The notes under the pieces were generated by a model. The model made no database searches, was not told the origin of the DNA, and worked only from the letters and a program-made list of their open reading frames with translations. Source: Mobula birostris (Eukaryota). From it: 64,000 nt of DNA. The stretch is taken from contig NC_092373.1 of NCBI RefSeq assembly GCF_030028105.1, forward strand, positions 174,445,556 through 174,509,555, in the 5' to 3' direction. Shown piece by piece: positions 5,085-64,000 of the stretch. The translations under genes and the position numbers were made by a program. Position 1 is the first letter of the stretch. Each line of letters begins with the position of its first letter.

Positions 5085-5207
5085 CACAAGACACAGGAGC
5101 AGAATTAGGCCATATGGCCCATCAAGTCTGCTTCACTATTTGATCATGGCTGATTTATTTTCCCTCACAACTCTATTCTTCTGTATTCTCACCGTAATCT
5201 TTGACAC
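5085..5207 (-). mobile_element. CR1 3' end, left half; target of LTR element A (resumes at 12065)
   Basis: ggagcagaattaggccat...tttgacac joins seamlessly to cctgactaatcaagaacc at 12070. Compare the intact CR1 3' end at 49923-50070. Confidence 0.75.
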
Positions 5208-5323
5208 TGTAGTGATATCACGTGCAATGATGTGCCAGTACATGATTGAACAGAGCACTGAGCATGCACGGGATTGCCAGAATGTTCCAGCACGTGGCTG
5301 GGTTAAGGCGTGTTTGTTTATTA

Positions 5324-8300
5324 TGTAAGGGGGTTTCGTCTTTTACTGCGTAGGCTAATTAAAATGGCTTCTTTGTTATGTTATATTTGGGAATGCTTCT
5401 TTGTTATGTTAAATGCTGAGAAAGTCCTCCCGCTAGCAGTTTGTTGAATCGCGTTATCGATAAGATGTTATGAACCAACTGGGATAGTTGTTACGTTTTT
5501 GGTGTATCTGTAAGATTTGTATGCGTGGGGTTTTGGGGGGAGAAGGCGGGAGAGAGAGAGAGACAGAGGATGGACCAGGTGCTGTGATGTCCGCTAACAG
5601 GGTTGGACCCCAAGGAGAGTGTTCGGCAAGGAGACAGAGATGGACTCGTGTGGAGCGCCAGGTCAACCACCGTTGTTGGTCCTAGGCGGCCGGTCGAGGT
5701 GGTCTGAGGGGTCGCAGGGTGAAGAAGAGAGTCCTGAGCTCCAACTGTTTGTGCACGAAGAGATTGAACTTTGATAAGTGTGGCGCCTTTTATTTTCCTT
5801 TTATATTTTATTCTCTCTTAATTATATAGTTCCAGTCATATCTATAAACTGTATATCATTTAATCATATCTGGTGTACTGTCTGTTATTTGGGCAGGGTG
5901 GGGTACATCACACAGCATCCACACAAACTATTACCCAGTTTGGGGGGACCGAGGGCTGTTTCCCTAGACGACAGCGAGCCGAGCGACCCTGAGGGTGGCC
6001 GGGGGGCTACATTGTGGGGCCTTTCGTCCAGAATTGGATCTACTGGTACGCTGTGTGGTTGCCCTTTTTAAATCAGTAATGTGTGTCCCTGTGGGTTATT
6101 TGCTAGTTATTGCTGTATGCATGGTGGGTGAGGTCTTTGTTCGAGTTCAGACTAGCATTGACGAGCTGGAGGTGGAACTCGGCGCTGTCCATGCTGTTGG
6201 GAGAGAGAGGAAAGAGTGGTCTGATTCGGAGGTAGGGTCTGCGAATAAATGTTCTAGCTCTGGCAGGCTCCGCCTGGTACTTGGGATAGTGTCCACCCCA
6301 AGAGGGGCGGAGGCGTGCGAGACGAGGGCGGAGCGGATCTCTCAGTTGTTAGATGAGTGGCAGTGCTCGGTTGAGGGAGAGCGACAGGGATTGGTTGAAA
6401 GTTTAAGTAGGTGGGCTGGTGACGGTGTTAGAGCTGTCAGGTTCACTTACACCGTAGTGACAGCTGTCAGTTATTTGAACGAGGGGGGAAAGTTTTCAGT
6501 GTGTCTTCTCTGGCTAGGATGGAGGCTAAATTGCTTGCAGTGCCAGGGGGATCATTTCAGGGGATCAGCCCCTCCTTCAGTTGTTCAGCTGATCAGAGAG
6601 GTGTCAGGAAACTCAGTGGAGGCCCAGTGGGGGAACGGCTTGGGGTCTCTGGGGAAGCACGTTCCCAGCAATGTACCAATGAACTTCTGCAAGGAAAAGA
6701 CCCTATTCCTGAAGGCTTGGAGGGACCACGTCCCAGGGTGTCGTTATGGATTGAGGAAAGTGACGCTAAAGCCATCCTCGACCCCGGGGCGCAGGTCAAG
6801 TTGTTGTACAGTTCATTTTACAACCAGTATCCGAAGCATTAACCCTTGACAACCCCAAGGGCACCAGAGATTTTAGGTACCAGTGCCAGTAGTTATCCAG
6901 AAGACGATGATTGGTTAATGACCCTGGAGTTCATGGGGGCATTGTCTGGGCACCCAGCATGTCGAGTTGCTTCTGAGGACGTGTGTAGCAGCCTTGAGCC
7001 AGTACCGAATTTAAGCGAGACCCAGCAGTGGTACAGCCTGGGGAAAGTAGCTGAGGGTGAGACCCTCTTAGTAGATGCTCCGAACTACCACGAGGGAGGG
7101 GAGTTGACCGCTGAAGACACCTCAGTGAGAGAGAGGTCGCGGCAACTGGACCCTGGCGCCGTGGAAGATGTAGGCAGTGGGTGTGTGGATTATGCAACGT
7201 GGTTTAATGTGCTAGATCTGAGGGGTGGATGTTGCCAGATCCCGAGGAGTGCGGCTGTTGAGCCGAAGGCGGCCGTTATTAGTTCCCTAGGATTCTTCTG
7301 AGCCAAAAAGATGCCCAAGGGCATATCCGGAGCCCCTGCATCCTTCCCGCGGGGCATGAGGAAGACCATGGGGGAAGTGAAGGTGTGTGGAGTTTTGACG
7401 TATGTGGATGACCGCCTAGAGCTTGGATTCGCCTGGGGGGACTATGAAGCGAGGCGAGTGGCTGAGCCTGGGCGACAGAAGCGAAGTGTCAAATGTGGAG
7501 GAGTTTTTGGCCAGAGGAGTTTGGTGCAATGTGAGAAAATTGACCCGACATACCAGTTGAACTTCCTGGTGTTGGAACAGACAGTGGTGGACCTGGGGAT
7601 GGAAACCCAGGTCGTCAATCTGAATGAGACACAGGAGAGAGAGGGGATTTCCACCGTTGAACTGAGTGCTCAGAAATGCCGGCCAGAGACTGAGTGCTGC
7701 ACTTGTGGGACGACCATTGCAGACTTAGAATTCACGCTCGTCAACGTGGAGAAGGAGCAACGGAATTCCAAGCCAACACTGCGGTCATGTACTGATGAAT
7801 TAATCCAGCGAGAAGAAACAATGACCCACCTTCGAAGGGATCAGCAGAAACTCAAGACATCAATTCAGAAAAGATTGGAAGACTTACAAGTTGGAGAAGA
7901 TCAAGGAAGTGTTCTGACTAAGGCCAACCGAAAACCGAGAGCCCAGGGAGGGGAGTTTGACTACACTCCCGAGGAGGTGAAGAAATGGAGGACAGATCTC
8001 GGAAAAGGGAGGCGGACGCTTGAAAGGAACCTGAAGATGACCATCAAGAGTTTAAATGAAGGGGAAAATCTGAAAGTTGACCGGGAAGACATCATCAGGA
8101 AGTAAAAACTGGAGGCTGAACATCCTTTAACTGCTGCTTTTCAGGTCAGGATGGAAGAAGCTGGTGGGGTAGATGCGTCCCAGATTGAGATGGCCAAGAA
8201 CCCTGAGTCAGAACTGCTGAGGCTGTGGCGAGGGTTGAAGGAGTCCCCGAAGAAGCTGACGTCCCGACTGCAGGAGGCTGAAGGGATAGCCCCGGCTAAA

Positions 8301-9536
8301 TGTTTCAGTTTGGAGAAACTTAAACAGCAGCTACCGATCGAGGGAATGAGGAAGAATACGGATTCGAAGGATGGTGTGCTGCACATGCTGCCTATGTGGT
8401 ACATGCTGCCTTTCGCTAACTTCCCTGTGATTGAGGAAGAGACCTTTGGTCCTTCTCCCACTGAGTCAGGTGTAGTGGAGAGGGCTAGCTGTGGGCAGTC
8501 TGAGTTACGGCAGGATCAGGAAGGAAAAGAAGTGGGGCCCCGGTCACGGGACAGGGGGCTCTGAGCTGTAATGGTGGCCTGAGTGAGAGAGGAGTTGGCA
8601 AGCAGGCCTGAGGTATCCCTAGTAGTGTCAGAGCCTTTTGGGTTTAGGTGAGGGGGTACGGAGGTCTCGGAGGGTTAAGAAGCTCCCAGATAGGTTGGCC
8701 TATGTAGCGCCCGTGGGACAGGCGTAAGGTCCACTGTTTGGGGAGCACTGTCGCTGTGTGTATCTGTGTATGTGTGTGTTGTGTGTCTGCAGGACTGGCT
8801 GGCGAGTTATTTAGAAGTCATGAGGACATGACTTTATTTGGTGGGGGCAGAGTGTAAGGGGGTTTCGTCTTTTACTGTGTAGGCCAATTAAAATGGCTTC
8901 TTTGTTATGTTATACTTGGGAATGCTTCTATGTTATGTTAAATGCTGAGAAAGTCCTTCCGCTAGCAGTTTGCTGAATCAGGTTACTGATAAGAAGATGT
9001 TATGTATGAACCAACTGGGATAGTCGTTATGTTTTTGGTGTATCTGTAAGATTTGTATGCGCGGCATTTTGGGGAGAGAAGGTGGGAGAGAGAGACAGAG
9101 GATGGACCAGGTGCTGTGATGTCCACTAACGGGATCGGACCCCGAGGAGGGCGTTCGGCAAGGAGACAGAGACGGACTCATGTGGAGCGCCTGGTCGACC
9201 ACCGTTGTTGGTCCCAGGCGGCCGGTCGAGGTGGTCCGAGGGGTCGCAGGGTGAAGAAGAAGGGTCCTGAGCTCCAACTGTTTGTGCACGAAGAGATTGA
9301 ACTTTGAAAAGTGTGGCACCTTTTATTTTCCTTTTCTATTTTATTCTCTCTTAATTATATAGTTCCAGTAATATCTATAAACTGTAAATCATTTAATCGT
9401 ACTGTCTGTTATTTGGGCGGGGTGGAGTACATCACACAGCATCCACACAAACTAATTACCCACTTTGGCGGGGCCAAGGGCTGTTTCCGTAGACGACAGC
9501 AAGCTGAGCGACCCTGAGGTTAGCCGGGGGGCTACA
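5324..9536 (+). mobile_element. LTR element B: non-autonomous Gypsy with PNMA-like gag, inserted in the 5' LTR of element A
   Basis: LTRs 5324-6011 and 8853-9536 (TGTAAGGGGG...GGCTACA); TSD ATTA at 5320-5323 and 9537-9540. Degenerate tRNA-Pro-like PBS after 6011; purine tract before 8853. Gag QLLDEWQCS...LVESL, protease [11 protein letters not shown] remnants VLDLRGG / MPKGISGAPASF / YVDD. Confidence 0.92.
7521..8342 (+). pseudogene. Captured sarcomeric myosin heavy chain rod fragments (MYH16-like) inside element B
   Basis: [71 protein letters not shown] and [11 protein letters not shown]...[13 protein letters not shown] match recalled myosin II rod motifs (IDDLELTLAKVEKE, LDDLQAEEDKVNTLTK, RLEEAGGATSAQIEM, KKLAQRLQEAE...AKCASLEKTKQRL). 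Confidence 0.85.
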
Positions 9537-10245
9537 ATTACTGTAAATAAAAGTTCTCTAATTCTTTCAGAATATGATTCTTTACTGTTAACTCACGGTA
9601 TGTTTAAACAGAAGTAACATAACATGGTGTCAGAAAGCGTAGGAGAACATGCGAGTTTGGATTGCTCACAGACTCTCTCATTAAAGATAGATTTGTTTGT
9701 GGCATTCGAGATAATGCTTTGAGAGAAAGGCTGTTGAGAGAGCAAGATTTAAATTTTGAAAAAGCTCTGGCGCTTTGCAAAGTTTCTGAGACTGTGACGT
9801 TGCAGACTGAAGAGCTTTTTATCGAAAACTGCAATGTAAACGCTGTAAAAAAAGCGCAAATACATCAAAAAATATAATAATACGTTGACAAAGCCAACAG
9901 AGAACAAGATGGCATTGGAAAGAAAAAAGTCATGTGATCGCTGTGCGCGGGAACATCGTCCAAATCAGTGTCCCACATACAGCAAAATTTGCAATGGCTG
10001 CGTTAAGATTAATCATTTTTCACGCTGTTGTTAAAGTAGAAAGAAGGAAAATAAAATGAAACAAGTAAATACTATGCTTGAAGATGAACGTGAGGAATTT
10101 TACATAGATGTGCTTTATGAAAGTAAACAAAGTAAGAATGACTGGACTATTCCGTTGCAAGTGAATCAAAACAATATTCTGTTTAAATTTGATACTGGAG
10201 AGCAAGTAAATGTTCTTGCAGAATCTGAGTTTAATGCTTTAAAGC

Positions 10246-11078
10246 TGTGACAACAAACCAAGTTATCGGAAGATTGATGCTAATGAGAAAGAGATAAGGG
10301 AGACAATGGAGGAACGTTCAAAATGTTAATGAGAGAGAAGAGAGAGATAACGGAAAAGAAACACAGTTCAGAATATTGACAGACCGGTTGCTTTGAACCT
10401 GAACTGTTTGAAGTTTGATGGACAGGCGATACCCCGGCAGGGGGATAAAAAGAACAGGTTCGCTAAGGCACGACACACACCACGAGATCACGAGATAATG
10501 AGACCCTGGAAGAGCGGTGTGCCCCCACAAGTTGGTGGGAGCTTGGAGGTCTGATCGCGGGAACCGACCATAGACGCACAGGGTGAAAAAGGTACGATCG
10601 GTGGGAACCTGGTGTGTGTGTCCGGCCTTGCCTGGGTGCCGGGTTCACCGCGGAAGAATGGTTGTATCCGGAACGGAGGGGTCTCAGTCAGTGACCACAG
10701 AAGACATAAAAAAGGGTCCGCCCGAAAGCCAACTGTGAAGAACATCAAAGGTCTGTCTGAATCAAAATTTGCATTCTCTCTCTCTCCAACGGCACAACAG
10801 CGATTACTGCGAACTGTACTAAGCTGAACTGAACTCTGCGTCACTTAAGACTGATCATTTTACCCCTAGACTGCGATAGAGCTTGGTTGATTCCTGTTAC
10901 CCTAGTTCTGTGTACACGTGTGTATTATCATTGCTAACCTGCTGCATTTATATCCTTACGATTAGAGTACTGTGTTACTTACTTCTTTAATAAAACTTTA
11001 TTAGTTTCTGTTAAACCAGACTCCAACTAAGTGGTCCATTTCTGCTGGTTTGGCAACCCAGTTACGGGATACGTAACA
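10246..11078 (+). mobile_element. Solo LTR (element C, 833 bp) inserted in the protease region of element A
   Basis: TGTGAC...GTAACA termini; TSD AAGC at 10242-10245 and 11079-11082; AATAAA near 10989. Removing it restores EFNALKPRPKLHQT. Confidence 0.85.
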
Positions 11079-11276
11079 AAGCCAAGACCAAAGTTACATC
11101 AGACAAATATAAAAGGTATTCAGGTGCAGACATCGTGGCCAAGGTATCACACAAAAATATTGTGCATACGCTTTCATTTGTGGTCGTACCAAAAAAATGT
11201 ACAATCAATTCTGGGTTTATCTGCCTGTGAAAGTCTTAATTTGGCGAAAAGAATTTTTGTCTTGGATAGTGACACA

Positions 11277-11491
11277 GAGCTGAAGCGACAGAATGTTGCA
11301 CTACAGTCGGCAGAAGGTGATGTAACTCGACTGCAGGTCCAGCTCAAGGAGGCAATTATGATATGAAAAAGCAATGGCAGGAGGAGGTTGCTTCAATGCA
11401 AGCAATAATGAAAGAGACACTGAGAGAATACAAGATTCAGTTTCATCACTGTCTAGAGCAAGAACGCTCACAGTGGGCACAGTATAAGGAA
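11277..11491 (+). pseudogene. RABEP1: Captured Rabaptin-5 N-terminal coiled-coil fragment inside element A (resumes 11621-11665)
   Basis: ELKRQNVALQSAEGDVTRLQVQL..EAI..MKKQWQEEVASMQAIMKETLREYKIQFHHCLEQERSQWAQYKE versus recalled human DLKRQNAVLQAAQDDLGHLRTQL...EAIDEVKRQWREEVASLQAVMKETVRDYEHQFHLRLEQERTQWAQYRE. Confidence 0.9.
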
Positions 11492-11620
11492 GAAGTGAAA
11501 GCACGAGTGAAGGAATTGAGACATATTGAAATGAAGTCTCAGCATAAAAAAGAGATTACACAGTTAATGAATGAATTAGATGAAGAAAAGAAGATTTGTA
11601 TTTCATTACGCATGGAAGTG
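11489..11620 (+). pseudogene. SH3KBP1: Captured CIN85 C-terminal coiled coil inserted within the RABEP1 fragment
   Basis: [44 protein letters not shown] versus recalled human [46 protein letters not shown]. Confidence 0.85.
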
Positions 11621-11665
11621 CAATGTGAATCAACTGATCTAAGGAGACGTTTGTCTGAAGGACAA
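11621..11665 (+). pseudogene. RABEP1: Second RABEP1 fragment
   Basis: QCESTDLRRRLSEGQ versus recalled human EREIADLRRRLSEGQ; followed in frame by an integrase C-terminal-like tail GDKVRIQ...RSYMIQTEEGAVLRKNRK. Confidence 0.85.
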
Positions 11666-12064
11666 GGAGACAAAGTGAGGATACAAGATAAAAGGAACAC
11701 ATGGACACAGACCAGATCATACATGATCCAGACAGAGGAGGGAGCGGTGTTAAGAAAGAATCGCAAAGGCTTTAAGAAAGAGCCAACTTCAGAGTTTCAG
11801 TTATCTGATATAGATGAGTTTTGATTAACATTGTTAATTGTTTTTCTTTTTAAGGAAAGATAGATGTGGTGATATCACGTGCAATGATGTGCCAGTACAT
11901 GATTGGATAGAGCACTGAGCATACGCGGGATTGCCAGAATGTTCCAGCACGTGGCTGGGTTAAGACGTGTTTGTTTATTACCGTAAATAAAAGTTCTCTA
12001 ATTCTTCCAGAATATGATTCATTACTGTTAACTCAAGGTATGTTTAAACAGAAGTAACATAACA

Positions 12065-12485
12065 GACACCCTGACTAATCAAGAACCAATCAACCGCTGC
12101 TTTAATGACTTGGCCTTCACAGTTATCTGTGGCAATGAATTCCACAGACTTACCACCTTCTGACTAAAGTAATTCTTCCTCATCTCTGTTCTACATGGAC
12201 ATCCTTCTATTCTGAGGCTGTGCCCTGTTGACCTGGACGCTCCCACTATTTGAAACATCCTCTCCACGTCCACTCTATCTAGGTCTTTCACTATTCTGTG
12301 GTTTTCAATGAGATCCTCCCTCAGTCTTTTAAACTCCAGTGAATACAGGCTTAGAGCTATAAAACACTCATCATACATTAACCCTTTCATTCACGGGATC
12401 ATTGTTGTAAAACTCCTCTGGACCCTCTCCAATGCCAGCACATCTCATAGATAAGGGGCTCAAAACTACCCACAATACTCTAAAT
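12065..12485 (-). mobile_element. CR1 3' fragment, right half (continuation of 5085-5207)
   Basis: ORF 12079-12390 LYSLEFKRLREDLIE...RGHS-like...FSQKVVSLWNSLP is the CR1 ORF2 C-terminus. Confidence 0.8.
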
Positions 12486-35923: not shown

Positions 35924-38900
35924 TGTGGTGGCCTGCACACGCGGGACTCGAACCGGCATCGGGAGCCACGGGCAGACACGCGGTAGCGCGTTTGGAACTA
36001 CCCGCTCAGGGCGGACCTTCTGGGGACAGTCTGACATCATGTCCGACCATGTCCACCATCAATAATGGTGTTTCTATTACCAAAGATGGGGCTCAGGCAT
36101 GTGCCGCTGCCGCCCACCATGTGCTTTTCTGGGAAACGCTGGGGCCAGCCGTCGCTAATGGTTATGATGGCTGGCCACTGAGACAGCCTCCTGTACCTCT
36201 GGAACCGACACTCCAGGCAGTGCTTCCTGGTAGACACTGGGGCCGAAGTCAGCGTACTACCCCCCTCGAACATGGACACTCGTAATGCGGTTCCAGGCCC
36301 CGAACTCACCGCTGCAAATGGCACCAGTATTCAGACGTACGGCCCGTGAACTATCTCACTGCATTTCAGGTCCAGCCGTTTCACTTGGACTTTCCCGTTG
36401 GCAGTGGTGTCACAGCCACTACTAGGGGCAGATTTCCTACGAGCCAACTGCCTCCTGGTCGACCTAAAAAGCCGGCGTTTGGCCAACACTGAGATGTTCC
36501 AGACTTTACAGCTCAAGAAGCCAAGCTGCTGGCCCTCCACCTGGATTCCATGACCCCCTCAGGTAATGAATTCACCAGGGTGTTAGTGGAATTCCCCTCC
36601 ATAGTCACCCTGCAGTTCTCCATGGCCAACCCCAAGCACGGCGTGCAGCACCACATCCCCACGCAAGGACTGCTGCTACACGCCCGAGCTCACAGGCTCC
36701 CACCCGACAAGCTCCACCTCGCCAAGGAGGAGTTCCGTAAGATGGAAGAGATGGGAATCGTACGCCGCTCAGACAGCCCGTGGGTATCCCCGCTGCACAT
36801 GGTGCCCAAGTCCTCAGGAGGATGGAGGCCCTGCAGAGACAACAGAAGGCTCAATGATGCCACAACCGCCGACAGATTCCCGGTACCCCACATCCAGGAC
36901 TTCATGGCAAACCTGCATGGAGCGACCATCTTCTCGAAAATCGACCTTGTCAGGGGATACCATCAGATCCCAGTGCACCCCGACGACGTGCCCAAGACAG
37001 CCCTCATCACCCCGTTTGGTTTGTTCGAATTCCTGAGGATGCCTTTCGTTCTCAAGAATGCAGCCCAAACTTTCCAAAGGCTCATGGACTCGGTGGGACG
37101 CGGTTTGGATTTCGTTTTCATTTACTTGGACGATATCCTGGTGGCCAGCAGTTCGCACCAAGAGCACGTGGCACATTTGCGCCAGCTCTGCCAATGCCTG
37201 AGCGACCATGGACTGGCAATCAATCTGGCGAAGTGCCAGTTTGGGCTGACGGAGATCGACTCCTTGGGCCACAGAGTCAACCGACATGGCGCAGTTCCCC
37301 TACCGGACAAGGTCCAGGCCATCCGCCAGTTCCCCAAGCCCAGCACGGTCAAGGGCCTGCAGGAGTTCCTAGGGATGGTCAACTTTTATAATCGGTTCGT
37401 GCCTGTGGCGGCACGCATCATGAGACCCTTGTTCAGCCTGATGGCCGGCGAGGCCAAAGAAGTGGCATGGGGCGCAGAGTCCACGGAGGCGTTCGAGCAG
37501 GCCAAGGAGGCGCTGGCAAAGGCAGCCCTCCTAGTGGAGGGACACGGAGTCCACGGAGGCGTTCGAGCAGGCCAAGGAGGTGCTGACAAAGGCGCCCTCC
37601 TAGTGCACCTGAGAGTCGACGTATCCACGGCACTCACAGTCGACACTTCCGACACGGCAGACGGCGGAGTCCTGGAGCAGCTTGTCGAGGACCAGTGGCG
37701 ACCACTCGCTTTCTTCAGCCGGCACCTACGGCCACCGGAGGTGAAGTACAGTGCTTTTGACAGAGAGTTGCTAGCACTCTACCTGGCTGTCCGGCATTTC
37801 CGGTACTTCCTCAGGGGAAGGGAGTTCACCGTGTATACGGACCACAAGCCCCTCACCTTCGCACTGGCCAAGGTATCGGACCCATGGTCGGCTCGGCAGC
37901 AGAGGCACCTGTCCTTTATTTCAGAATTCACCACGGACGTCCGCCACATCGCAGGGAAGAACAACGTCGTCGCCGACACACTGTCTCGCCCCTGCCTCCA
38001 CTCAGTAGGCATATCGTCCTCAGGAATAGACTACGCAGCACTGGCGGAAGCACAACGGTCAGACACCGAGATCCCGGCTTACCGCACCACCGTTTTAGGG
38101 CTCCATTCGGAGGACGTCCATCAGCCTGACAGCGGATCGACTCCTGTGCGACGTGTCTACCAGCAAACCCCGACCCATGGTACCAGCAGCACGGAGGCGC
38201 CAGGTGTTCGACATGCTGCACGACCTGGCCCACCCGTCCATCCATCAACCTGGTAGCAGACAGATTCGTCCGGCACGGTTTGCAAAAACAGGTCGGACAC
38301 TGGGCCAGGACCTGCGTACACTGCCAGACCGCCAAAGTCAGCGGCACGTGAAGGCTCCCCTCCAGCAGTTCCAGCTGACGCACAGGAGGTTCCAACACAT
38401 CCACGTGGACATCGTCGGACCCCTGCCAGTCTCCTGGGGCGCCAGGTATACCTTTACCATTGTAGGCAGGTTCACCAGATGGCCGGAAGCCGTACTGCTC
38501 GCAGACATGTCCACTGAGTCCTGTGCCAGGATGCTCATTGCAAACTGGATCGCCAGGTTCGGCCTCCCAATGGACATCACCTACTACAGAGGGGTGCAGT
38601 TCATGTCGGGTTTGTGCACAGCACTGGCACAGCTCCTGGGCACCCAGCTGCATCACACCACAGCGTACCATCCCCAGTCCAACGGTTTGGTAGAGGGATT
38701 CCACCGGCATCTCAAGTCGGCCCTGATGGCACGTCTCAGGGGCCCCAACTGGGCAGATGAGCTTCCCTGGGTCCTACTGGGCATCCACACAGCCCCCAAG
38801 GAGGACCTGGACACCTCAGCAGAATTGGTCTACGGTGCCCCCCTGACGGTCCCAGGCGAGTTCGTACCAGAGGCCCGAGGTTCGGAAGAAACTCCAGCAG

Positions 38901-39507
38901 TGGTGCTAACGAGACTGCGGGACAAGGTAGGGACCCTGGCACCGGTCCCGACCTCCAGGCATGGTCCCACGCCATCCTTCACCCCTAAAGACCTCCCAGA
39001 CTGTGAGTATGTTTTCACTCGCAGGAGCATGCCCAGGTCACCTCTACAGCAGCCGTACGAGGGACCCTTCGAGGTGATCCGGTGTTGTGGAGGTGGGTGG
39101 CTGGGAAGAGACTTTTACAGTGGACCACCTCAAACTGGCGCACTGGGACACTGAGCAACCAGTGAGGGTACCCGCACCGCGCCGGCCAGGCCGGCCACCC
39201 AGGGAAGCCACACAGACTGGGGGCTCCACTTCCCCCATGGATGTTTCTTGGGGGGGGGTGTCGGCCCGCACACGCGGGACTGGAACCACCATCGGGAGCC
39301 ACAGGCAGACACGCGGTAGCACGTTTGGAACTGCCTGCTCAGGGCAGACCTTCCGGGGACAGTCTGACGTCACGTCCGCCCCGCGGATCGCAGGGGTCCG
39401 TGGGAGGGGAGATTTAAGCGCGCTATTTTGAATCAGTAAAGGCATTCTGAGTTCAGCTCTCTCTGTCTCCGTGTGTTTCTTTAGTAGTGCGTTTGCGCGT
39501 GACTACA
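35924..39507 (+). mobile_element. Gypsy LTR retrotransposon, CsRn1-like clade, internally deleted
   Basis: Partial 5' LTR 35924 to about 36040 matches the 3' LTR 39259-39507 (ends GACTACA). TSD GTAG at 35920-35923 and 39508-39511; G-run PPT. CHCC-like WCFYYQRWG..C.C.PPC, protease LVDTGAEVS, RT YLDD, RNase H, integrase HIHVDIVGPLP...HPQSNGLVE. Confidence 0.92.
36550..39154 (+). pseudogene. pol (RT-RNase H-integrase), frameshifted
   Basis: ORFs 36550-38256 and 38153-39154 carry FSKIDLVRGYHQIP, FIYLDDILVAS, YSAFDRELLA, YTDHKPL, FTRWPEA and PYEGPFEV. Confidence 0.9.
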
Positions 39508-60127: not shown

Positions 60128-60533
60128 TTTTTGGGTATTGATGACGGTCACCTACTATCTTTCAGCTTCGGTGTCACTTACAATGGAAATGTCAGGTCCT
60201 CTCCACCTTCTCCTGAACATCACCCCGCCCCACACACAAGCACGAGATGCTAGACATCCTCAGCCGGTGACCCAGCGGAGCTTCCAGAAGGTTCTGGATC
60301 ACACATCCGCAGTGTCTCGGGACTCCCGGAGCTGGTGCATTGGTTTATAACCTGGCTTATCACCGGACCCGGCTGCCGGCTTTACTTTCGTTTCAGTGGA
60401 AGTGAAAGCTTTGGTGTGGGTGTGTCGGATCTGATCAGCCCCGCCCGCCCGGAGGCGGTGCTCCGTCGTTGGGGGGAGTCGGTCAGCGGCGGGAGGGACA
60501 GAGACAGTGAGAGCCGAAGCGGCACGGTCATCC

Positions 60534-60900
60534 CTCCTGATCCCGCACAGGGCAGTGTCCCCGCCTGATCCGCAGACGGCACGATCATCCCTCCTGATCC
60601 CGCACAGGGTACAGTCCCCCTCCTGATCCCGCACAGGGTACAGTCCCCCGCCTGATCCCGCACAGGGTACAGTCCCCCGCCTGATCCCGCACAGGGCAGT
60701 GTCCCCCGCCTGATCCCGCACAGGGTACTGTCCTCCTCCTGATCCCGCACAGGGTACAGTCCCCCGCCTGATCCCGCACAGGGTACAGTCCCCCTCCTGA
60801 TCCCGCACAGGGTACAGTCCCCCTCCTGATCCCGCACAGGGTACAGTCCCCCGCCTGATCCCGCACAGGGCAGTGTCCCCCGCCTGATCCCGCAGACGGC
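60534..60900. repeat. 29-bp minisatellite (cctgatcccgcacagggtacagtcccccg), about 13 copies
   Basis: Directly visible; gives the 29-aa periodicity of the minus-strand ORFs. Confidence 0.95.
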
Positions 60901-61021
60901 ACGGTCCATCGCTGGATCCCACAGACGGTGGCCCGGTTCCCCTGACCCGAACAAGTTGGTTCCGACTGAGTGACAGGAATCGATCCCGGGTTCCGAGGCC
61001 AAATCTACACCAACCGCCGCA

Positions 61022-61334: not shown

Positions 61335-62058
61335 GGCTGAGTGTGTTTTGGTTAGTTGGCATGGGTGAATGAGTGTGAATGTGTTTTGGCAGTGAAGGCA
61401 TGTGTGCAGTGTGGTAAGTGATTGTGAGTGTGAGGGTGTAGACAGTTACCGGGTGTGCGTCAATGTGTGGTGAGGATGTGGTGTACGTACATGTGTGCAG
61501 CCTAAGCACATATCACTGAGTGTGTGGGCACATGTGCACTGAGGGTGGGGCAGAAACGAAGACTTGAATTTCCCTTCACTATAGCAATTGCAATGACAGT
61601 GAGGGTTAAATTGAGGGATTGCCAAAGGTCACATCGAACAAAGGTGGGTGGGGAATTATGTGATCTGCCTAAACAAGGAAGATGAACTGGATCATGAAAC
61701 AGCTGAGAGGGGAAGAGTGAGATTTAGGTAATACTTATGTAGATATGTGATACATACATCCACAGATGTGTAGGGATGTTATCAACAGACAAGAGGGTAA
61801 ATATTGACCATCTGTTTCTCAAGACAACCATTAAAGAAAAAAACACCACTGATCTACCTACCTACATGGTCACATATTCCTCGACCCCTCTAATTGCCAG
61901 AAATTTATGGCTGAAACTTAAAACAGTGTTGAATAGGTTCTTGATGGTAAGGGTCTCAATGGTTATGGGGAGAAGGCAAGAGAATGGGGTTAAGAGGGAA
62001 AATAAATCAGCATGGCAGAGCAGACTCATTGAGCAGAATGGCCTAGTACTGTTCCTAT

Positions 62059-62972
62059 GGACTGAGTCACCCCAGTCTGCCAGGGTATAGCATGCCAAAG
62101 GTTCACCATTATGGATGGAGTCACCCCAGTCCCCCAGGGTAGAAGATTCCAAAGGTTCACCATTATGGACTGGGTCACCGCAGTCCACCAGGGTAGAGGA
62201 TTCTAGAGGTTCACCATTATGGACTGAGTCACCCCAGTCCGCCAGGGTATAGCATGCCAAAGGTTCACCATTATGGACTGAGTCACCCCAGTCCGCCAGG
62301 GTATAGCATGCCAAAGGTTCACCATTATGGACTGGGTCACCGCAGACCGCCAGGGTAGAGGATTCCAAAGGTTCACCATTATGGACTGAATCACCCCAGT
62401 CTGCCAGGGAAGAGGATTCCAAAGCTTCACCATTATGGACTGGGTCACCCCAGTCCGCCAGGGAAGAGGATTCCAAAGGTTCACCATTATGGACTGAATC
62501 ACCCCAGTCTGCCAGGGAAGAGGATTCCAAAGCTTCACCATTATGGACTGGGTCACCCCAGTCCGCCAGGATAGAGGATTCCAAAGGTTCACCATTATGG
62601 ACTGAATCACCCCAGTCCGCCAGGGTAGAGAATGCCAAAGCTTCACCATTATGGACTGAATCACCCCAGTCTGCCAGGGAAGAGGATTCCAAAGCTTCAC
62701 CATTATGGACTGGGTCACCCCAGTCCGCCAGGATAGAGGATTCGAAAGGTTCACCATTATGGACTGAATCACCCCAGTCTGCCAGGGTAGAGAATGCCAA
62801 AGCTTCACCATTATGGACTGAGTCACCCCAGTCTGCCAGGGTAGAGACTTCCGAAGGTTCACCATTATAGACTGAGTCACCCCAGTCCACCAGGGTGGAG
62901 GATTCCAAACGTTCACCATTATGGACTGAGTCACCGCAGTCCCCCAGGGTAGAGAATGCTAAATGTTCACCA
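62059..62972. repeat. 54-bp minisatellite, 17 copies
   Basis: Unit ggactgagtcaccccagtccgccagggtagaggattccaaaggttcaccattat with exact 54-bp period (for example, starts at 62221 and 62761). Confidence 0.97.
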
Positions 62973-64000
62973 CCCTCTTGAGATAAGGACGAGTTTCTTC
63001 ACTCAGTGGTAAACACCCACCCTGTTCTGTAAGAGTTTTGTGAATTTCCATTTGACCTCCGTTCATTCCTTCAGCCTCTCGAGATTAGAGGCCCTCTTCA
63101 TTCTACAAGCCCACCAGCCCCTCTGTGCTGCCTGTATGGCAAGATCATCCTTGTTTGGGTGAGGGTAGCAGAATTGTTTATGGTTCTTCATGAAATTATC
63201 TACATGTCAATGTCAAGCACAAGTGCTCTGTATGCACAGGTGCTCTGAAAATCTTGTTCACAGTAGCATCACATGCACATGGGATCAGGTAAGTATAATT
63301 CAAATGAAAAACAGGTTATACATTTTTACAAGAGGAAAACACAAATAGAACAAAGACAAACTCACACTTTGCAGTGCAAAGTGGTCATAGTGCTGCTAAA
63401 CTGCGGTGCGCCAGTTGGTTTTACAATCAAATGGTTGGAAGGAAGTAGTCATTCTTGATCCTAGTGGTGTGGCCCGTCAGGCTTCATTACTTCCTGCTGG
63501 ATGATAGCCGCATAACGATGGCATAGCTGGGATACTGCGAATCTTTGTTAGTTTGGAATTGGCTTATTAATTTTGTCTTGCACTGCTTTTCAAACAGATC
63601 AAATTACACAGTGCATTGAAATAGAACAAGGTAAAACAATAACAGAGCACAAAATAAAACTAACAGCTACAGAGAAAGTGCAGTGCAGATTGTGTGGTCA
63701 AGAGTCCATCTTATCATCAGTCCTTGGGGGAGGACAACAAAACTGTATATGATTCTCCATGGAAAGTCTACAACCACAGAAGTTCCTGCAGGATTGGAGG
63801 TGTGTCCTCCAGTCCTGCAAGTATCAAAACATTTGCATTCCACCAAGTCCTCGGTTTTCCTTCACTTTCTACATTAGGGACTATTCTCTCAGCCGCCAAG
63901 ATCCCAAATTCAGCATTCCTTGCCAAAACCTTTACAAATCTTTTAAGTTATTCCTTAAAATCCATCCTTCTGTTTTAGCCTTCAGTCTCTTGTCCTGTTG

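Follow-up and report, generated by a model that had tools for sequence, protein, structure and literature searches.

Within the window, the whole 64,000-nucleotide stretch of Mobula birostris DNA analyzed here, lies element A, which spans positions 5208-12064 and has two 200-base long terminal repeats (LTRs) flanked by a 5-base target-site duplication. Element A is a dead, non-autonomous Gypsy-type LTR retrotransposon in which the stretch from reverse transcriptase (RT) to integrase is replaced by spliced pieces of the host genes RABEP1 and SH3KBP1 (CIN85). Its parts are as follows.

5203..5207 and 12065-12069, + strand: left and right copies of the 5-base target-site duplication of element A
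5208..5323, + strand: 5′ LTR of element A, part 1, 95% identical to 11865-11980
5324..9536, + strand: LTR element B, which is unrelated and sits nested within element A's 5′ LTR; 4-base duplication (5320-5323 / 9537-9540)
9541..9624, + strand: 5′ LTR of element A, part 2; taken whole, the two LTRs show 10 differences in 200 bases
9625..9635, + strand: primer-binding-site-like motif directly after the 5′ LTR, from sequence
9636..10130, + strand: broken gag remnant with a zinc knuckle; 5′ part absent relative to siblings; stops and frameshifts
10131..10245, + strand: aspartic protease, part 1; Pfam Asp_protease_2 weak here, clearer in parents
10246..11078, + strand: solo-LTR-like insert of 833 bases splitting the protease (TG...CA, 4-base duplication)
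11079..11279, + strand: protease, part 2, ending in a 6-base repeat (11274-11279)
11276..11414, + strand: RABEP1 exon 3, starting at base 2 of the exon; near 11355-11359, a 63-64 base deletion and a frameshift, both private to this copy
11415..11492, + strand: RABEP1 exon 4, 5′ part; a 9036-base intron is missing at 11414/11415
11489..11623, + strand: coiled-coil piece of SH3KBP1 (CIN85) drawn from three exons, without the introns of 1095 bases at 11547/11548 and 2011 bases at 11611/11612
11617..11670, + strand: RABEP1 exon 4, 3′ part, the last 8 bases (11663-11670) common with the integrase tail
11663..11824, + strand: integrase C-terminal tail, in frame to the stop at 11822-11824, with a 27-base family deletion near 11710
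11852..11864, + strand: polypurine tract, from sequence
11865..12064, + strand: 3′ LTR, 200 bases, 92-95% identical to full-length beta-type gag-pol parents

As in LTR-mediated retrocopies, both LTRs and the target-site duplication are present and there is no poly(A). The copy is dead; it is without RT, RNase H and integrase core, and its gag and protease are both broken. Its primer-binding-site-like motif is, we presume, of the tRNA-Leu type. An earlier sequence-only reading had the protease running in frame into RABEP1; the order of the parts is as it described, but the protease is split by the 833-base insert and frameshifted near 11190. The insert belongs to another family than element A and is missing from the sibling copies compared. 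As for element B, its LTRs differ at 47 of 675 bases, and an open frame at 7605-8095 encodes a stretch of myosin heavy chain rod about 160 codons long (PDB myosin-7 916-1078, E 4e-16).

The cargo as a whole (11276-11670) consists of RABEP1 exons 3-4 enclosing the CIN85 piece. Pfam identifies it as Rabaptin (E 4e-23), a PDB search finds the coiled coil of CIN85 (E 1.7e-8), homolog searches with it return ray RABEP1 and SH3KBP1, and a 46-residue piece of a sister copy is 98% identical to ray SH3KBP1. Both host genes were located in the genome and their exons read against the cargo: the four pieces in the window agree with the genome's own genes at 25/26 and 41/44 (RABEP1), 39/43 (SH3KBP1) and 14/17 (RABEP1) residues. 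The order of protease end, RABEP1, CIN85, RABEP1, integrase tail and stop read from the letters is borne out. The host RABEP1 piece itself agrees with the ray proteins at 111/111 (Mobula), 110/111 (Hypanus) and 110/111 (Hemitrygon) residues.

The cargo replaces, rather than interrupts, about 3 kb of parental RT-integrase sequence that is missing in cargo elements. Near 11355, a deletion of about 63-64 bases and an adjoining frameshift reads equally well as a 63-base deletion plus a 1-base loss or as a 64-base deletion plus a substitution; this change, noticed earlier as a loss of about 20 residues and of one base near 11358, is private to the window copy (1 of 35 family copies). The 44-residue CIN85 piece claimed for this locus is found in the siblings (44 codons), while the window copy has two 3-base gaps.

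Three host exon junctions are spanned in the window cargo with zero intron bases retained, and no fragment is accompanied by flanking intron sequence. This shows an mRNA origin, as the sequence-only reading had supposed on seeing no intron. DNA-level capture or a fusion of host genes, for which no support was found and to which only the cargo start near an exon edge, at the second base of RABEP1 exon 3, might point, is of almost negligible probability: the cargoes lack five introns, from three genes that lie on three contigs, with no intron base retained, and the copies have LTRs and target-site duplications. The exon junctions spanned without intron bases rule it out. An L1-type processed pseudogene was also rejected, the cargo being internal fragments between LTRs and not the 3′ end of a poly(A)-tailed mRNA.

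Related copies in this and other rays

Element A is one of many copies. The RABEP1-CIN85 joint occurs 143 times in the genome (at most 2 mismatches) and the joint at which RABEP1 returns 61 times (at most 3 mismatches), giving at least 61 copies; reversed-pattern controls for both searches gave 0 matches. Over 300 joint-bearing copies survive, in five cargo classes. They are dispersed, each with its own flanks and duplications and without RT, which fits a non-autonomous family multiplied in trans. Full-length parents carry protease, RT, RNase H and integrase in the Ty3/Gypsy order, and none of the 20 read has an unbroken frame.

Searching with SH3KBP1 brought up a CIN85-only family, which carries four spliced exons in the same slot and accounts for all 14 CIN85 loci fetched and for 29 of 30 further loci with the CIN85-integrase exit joint (3 of the 29 repeat places already fetched); this joint has 133 occurrences in the genome. 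The family has long and short 5′ entry points (L038, L039, L044, L198, L199, L203, L211, L214, L218, L219), L044 looking like a mosaic of the two. Twelve of 13 CIN85-only copies have Glu where the host SH3KBP1 (contig C7 near 81005315) and a Mobula protein have Asp; Hemitrygon and Pristis SH3KBP1 have Glu at this site, so that the capture is older than this change in the host.

The uninterrupted RABEP1-site pattern has 29 non-host matches, and all 11 that were read are RABEP1-only elements, which share the capture points of the chimera wherever these remain undeleted. Thirteen of the 29 lie on one contig (C17; L058, L236-L240) and appear to be duplicates of a single insertion: among the five fetched, four are 98-99% alike including their flanks and the fifth 87-95%, as in a segmental duplication of a decayed copy. 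About 17 independent RABEP1-only insertions remain.

Sixty extra copies with the RABEP1-CIN85 joint were read among the 100 matches listed, chosen as not previously seen and therefore biased against the RABEP1-CIN85-RABEP1 family. They comprise 34 that continue into SLU7, 15 that go back to RABEP1, 6 that end at the CIN85-only joint and 5 unassigned (two of the 60 having been reassigned by hand). The third cargo, from the splicing factor SLU7, covers three exons with introns of about 1.2 and 5.6 kb missing at the two junctions; the host gene lies on contig C8 at 121.967-121.992 Mb, and 51 copies of the RABEP1-CIN85-SLU7 family were fetched (L095-L153, L177-L193). Pfam gave no match for the SLU7 piece, and no SLU7-only element was seen in the 18 loci fetched by SLU7 (L176 being uninformative through a deletion). 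The reciprocal form, starting with CIN85 and ending with RABEP1, was found in 0 of 12 candidates, one of them uninformative. One locus, L102, has two RABEP1-CIN85 joints about 760 bases apart, in a complete copy followed by a fragment.

The joints are common with Hemitrygon and Hypanus entries (P0001, P0002, P0125) that have the same protease as the window element, which indicates that the events predate the split from those stingrays and are presumably tens of millions of years old. Judged by sequence, a "RABEP1-like" protein of Hemitrygon akajei and two "uncharacterized" proteins from stingrays are copies of the element, though annotated as genes, a practical issue for the annotation of rays. 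P0001, an annotated copy in another stingray, has all four joints and older backbone residues. A protease search of 1.84 billion representatives returned only three relatives at ≥80%, all known cargo carriers; ten more distant matches scanned showed no clear host cargo, a 1327-residue relative has the protease-RT-RNase H-integrase order, and a tail pattern approximated from the protein, an approximate query, gave no match. No RNA run was listed as holding the sequence, which speaks neither for nor against transcription. In four guessed RNA runs, host mRNA contigs supplied most of the depth; a single contig of low depth, from a decayed copy, bridged chimeric joints (57 other letters and 25 gap letters in 577) and does not serve as proof of transcription. 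Contigs of four organisms lie on the stretch, three of them bridging the RABEP1-integrase joint; under a 31-letter rule, none of the listed contigs bridges the RABEP1-CIN85 joint.

Joints, donors and order of assembly

Microhomology, given here as base matches without significance simulation, is present at every joint. For the original capture of RABEP1, 6 bases match at the entry, in the RT start, and 8 bases at the exit, in the integrase tail; 7 bases match where the CIN85 capture exits. What joins protease and RABEP1 in the window copy is not a capture joint but a later deletion between 6-base repeats, in which about 165 bases of the RT start were lost. Within the hybrid, the entry joint from RABEP1 to CIN85 (11489-11500) has 10 of 12 bases alike in both host genes and the exit joint back to RABEP1 (11617-11623) has 7 bases in common, both using one RABEP1 motif that resembles both ends of the CIN85 piece. 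RABEP1 resumes one codon further on, almost where it had left off, as the sequence-only reading described. Each gene was likely captured once from mRNA and then recombined between elements at look-alike sites of 6-12 bases.

The donors can be approached through derived changes. A silent change absent from the host occurs in 6 of 11 RABEP1-only and 30 of 30 RABEP1-CIN85-RABEP1 copies, and this element-only change ties the returning RABEP1 piece to an element. In the shared CIN85 segment, no base separates the CIN85-only family from the host gene; here, an element donor is argued from the exit joint, which is identical, and from how improbable two captures of one region would be. The most likely source of the CIN85 piece is therefore a sister element that carried CIN85, and not a second capture of host mRNA. 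Of the earlier proposal of successive mRNA template switches, the mRNA origin is supported, but most likely not the source of the CIN85 piece. Direct copying from host SH3KBP1 mRNA into a RABEP1-carrying element appears very improbable, even though the piece is equally close to the host gene and to the CIN85-only family, two different 5′ entry points into SH3KBP1 exist, and recurrent switching at one site is reported in Drosophila (Tan et al. 2016, PMC5131818); the lineage already had this region in more than 100 copies with packaging signals, and the single-crossover forms leave CIN85 at the very same joint.

In a backbone tree built from 61 rows (subsampled to no more than 14 per class, plus named copies), single-cargo families have an alpha gag and chimeras a beta gag (100/100 split). 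Cargo moved between alpha and beta backbones, for which recombination between elements is needed. The reading we consider fairly probable is that the hybrid was made when reverse transcriptase switched from the RNA of one cargo-carrying element to that of a sister, the shuffling proceeding stepwise by recombination. A point against it is the mixed alpha/beta signal at two sites of the tail beside the CIN85 joint. Each host mRNA would have been captured a single time, through two switches inside a particle supplied by an autonomous helper; one switch between both cargo RNAs would have given RABEP1-CIN85, a later switch with a RABEP1-only RNA the RABEP1-CIN85-RABEP1 family, and a new mRNA capture the SLU7 family, with crossovers with helpers putting the cargo onto beta gag and LTR. 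Less certainly, only products with the gag frame open to near the 3′ end would have multiplied, translation in cis or RNA stability probably having mattered, and the cargo would be in-frame filler.

RABEP1-CIN85 first, with one switch per round, is the simplest path. The gag of the single-crossover and SLU7 copies, with about 10% alpha states vs 2% in the RABEP1-CIN85-RABEP1 family, fits their earlier branching. The same donors may also have acted in another order, though this is unlikely: a double switch in one round would have put the CIN85 piece into a RABEP1-only element, and single-crossover forms would have arisen later by homologous crossover in the CIN85 segment. This order requires two non-homologous switches per round instead of one, but several observations favor it. 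Copies of the RABEP1-CIN85-RABEP1 family branch basally in the beta group, mingled with beta parents, whereas the single-crossover and SLU7 copies mostly fall in a clade nested within it; the stingray copy P0001 already combines all four joints with its older backbone; and the derived RABEP1 changes and protease deletion of six single-crossover copies are mostly absent from the RABEP1-CIN85-RABEP1 family, so that the sampled copies are not its literal parents. LTR divergence, with medians of 6-9% in all classes, does not order the families, and either the single-crossover form or the double-switch product may have come first.

The open frame from gag to cargo

Joints present in at least two copies are in frame in 20 of 25 automatic groups, vs 13 of 36 private joints (143 copies, p 0.0015). 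Curation dropped 2 duplicate groups, 3 reference artefacts, 1 joint after a stop, 1 triplet slippage, one partly detected CIN85-SLU7 joint and a shared 1-base loss, after which 15 of 16 shared joints are in frame (p 0.0002), or 15 of 17 counting the 1-base loss. This loss, just before the integrase joint in 9 of 40 CIN85-only copies, cuts the frame past the CIN85 end from about 89 to 33 codons, about 55 codons early. Another joint, present in 4 copies, keeps the frame in just 2 of them.

Among shared cargo variants, amino-acid changes are not depleted (2 silent to 9 and 2 to 7 in RABEP1, 1 to 5 in SLU7); among shared gag variants they are (about 0.5). Singleton ratios above 1 show the site weights to be rough, so that only the contrast of shared with singleton variants was used, and shared gag indels, mostly the reference copy's own, were left out. 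The cargo variants are few, making weak constraint compatible with the data, and the gag constraint may come from helpers. In the RABEP1-CIN85-RABEP1 family, the longest cargo-reaching frame has 384 codons (35 copies). The window copy has neither the intact frame nor the amino-acid constraint of a functional chimeric gene.

The continuous hybrid helix suggested earlier is what fold prediction returns: for one natural copy, with no alignment used, a single helix over residues 2-153 is predicted (mean pLDDT 93, pTM 0.47), and the hydrophobic spacing is kept at both joints, owing to their location at look-alike sequence. The importance that the sequence-only reading gave to two endocytic adaptors forming this helix is not supported, the third cargo being a splicing factor, the cargo amino acids showing no constraint and the copy being dead.

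What was likely selected, as the comparison of joints suggests, is the read-through frame rather than a hybrid protein. Selection would have been for read-through itself, as reported for the mouse IAP deletion type, or for RNA stability. Nonsense-mediated decay is a possible basis for the RNA stability of in-frame products. That no selection was involved, the joints being in frame by codon-phase bias and luck, is decidedly unlikely: microhomologies alone are in frame in 38-55% of cases (0.38-0.55) and one shared frameshift spread to 9 copies, but private joints fall well short of the in-frame share of the shared ones.

Selection on the Gag-cargo fusion protein itself, with coiled coils aiding Gag assembly or RNA recruitment, is quite unlikely. 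It would account for the persistence of charged helical segments in all three chimera cargoes with the proline-rich CIN85 part dropped, for the single predicted helix with its kept spacing, and for the direct Gag fusion that results from the lack of a protease in most SLU7-family copies. Against this, many in-frame deletions remove parts of the cargo, an in-frame derivative without cargo exists (L072), the cargo amino acids show no constraint, and purine-rich codons (A+G 0.64-0.70 vs 0.54-0.61 in the element) explain both the joints and the helical bias. In its broadest form, in which a cargo slot is selected and host coiled coils fused in frame to Gag act in cis for assembly or RNA recruitment, the in-frame myosin rod piece of the unrelated element B would be a second independent case; we hold this, too, to be quite improbable, but were it true, parasitic elements would compete by capturing and swapping host helices. 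Selection of the read-through frame remains the reading we prefer.

Comparison with known LTR elements

The ray parents share with Ty3/Gypsy elements of a single gag-pol frame the protease-RT-RNase H-integrase order, and have 200-base LTRs and 5-base duplications; they presumably belong to the Mag-like clade. The cargo elements share with LTR-mediated retrocopies spliced mRNA, internal replacement, microhomology and re-mobilization. In the available parts of Tan et al. 2016 (PMC5131818), partial spliced mRNA replaces internal ORFs with a median microsimilarity of 6 bases, and there are multi-gene chimeras (CG4799_CG11924_r and a four-gene mouse case) as well as re-mobilization as non-autonomous elements. 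The cases in those parts are single loci or few insertions, with the parental protein as the yardstick for their frame, and those parts describe no intermediates; in the ray, by contrast, more than 300 joint-bearing copies exist, the frame is kept through gag to the integrase tail, and intermediates survive.

Maize Bs1, as described in PMC13317346 and PMC5131818, resembles the ray element in having three host genes in one LTR element with a hybrid ORF. Bs1 is described as transcribed and translated, whereas the ray copies are decayed, their cargo is unconstrained and single-cargo parents are present. The mouse IAP deletion subtype, according to PMC6466679, is like the ray element a non-autonomous, in-frame internal replacement that outnumbers or rivals its helper, and its gag-pol fusion is reported to act in cis. 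Unlike the ray element, it carries no host cargo in that account and is retrovirus-like, not Gypsy; a cis effect in the ray would follow by analogy.

The mechanism is known from these systems; in the literature searched there was no description of the ray elements, and nothing of this scale or with surviving intermediates and such a frame control. Multi-gene LTR-element chimeras have so far had their assembly inferred from end products, whereas single-cargo parents, a one-crossover form and two later products in one vertebrate genome make stepwise assembly directly testable. In non-autonomous elements, selection on an open frame can be told apart from selection on protein function by comparing shared with private joints, which serves as a natural control. 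The series is likely a rare fossil record of exon shuffling, and its interest rests on the intermediates and the frame control, not on the dead copy.

Elsewhere in the window, a further pol of Gypsy type occupies 36493-39154, between repeats at 35925 and 39258, its long open frames covering RT, RNase H and the integrase core, and tandem arrays of 29- and 54-base units lie at 60502-60987 and 61948-63057.
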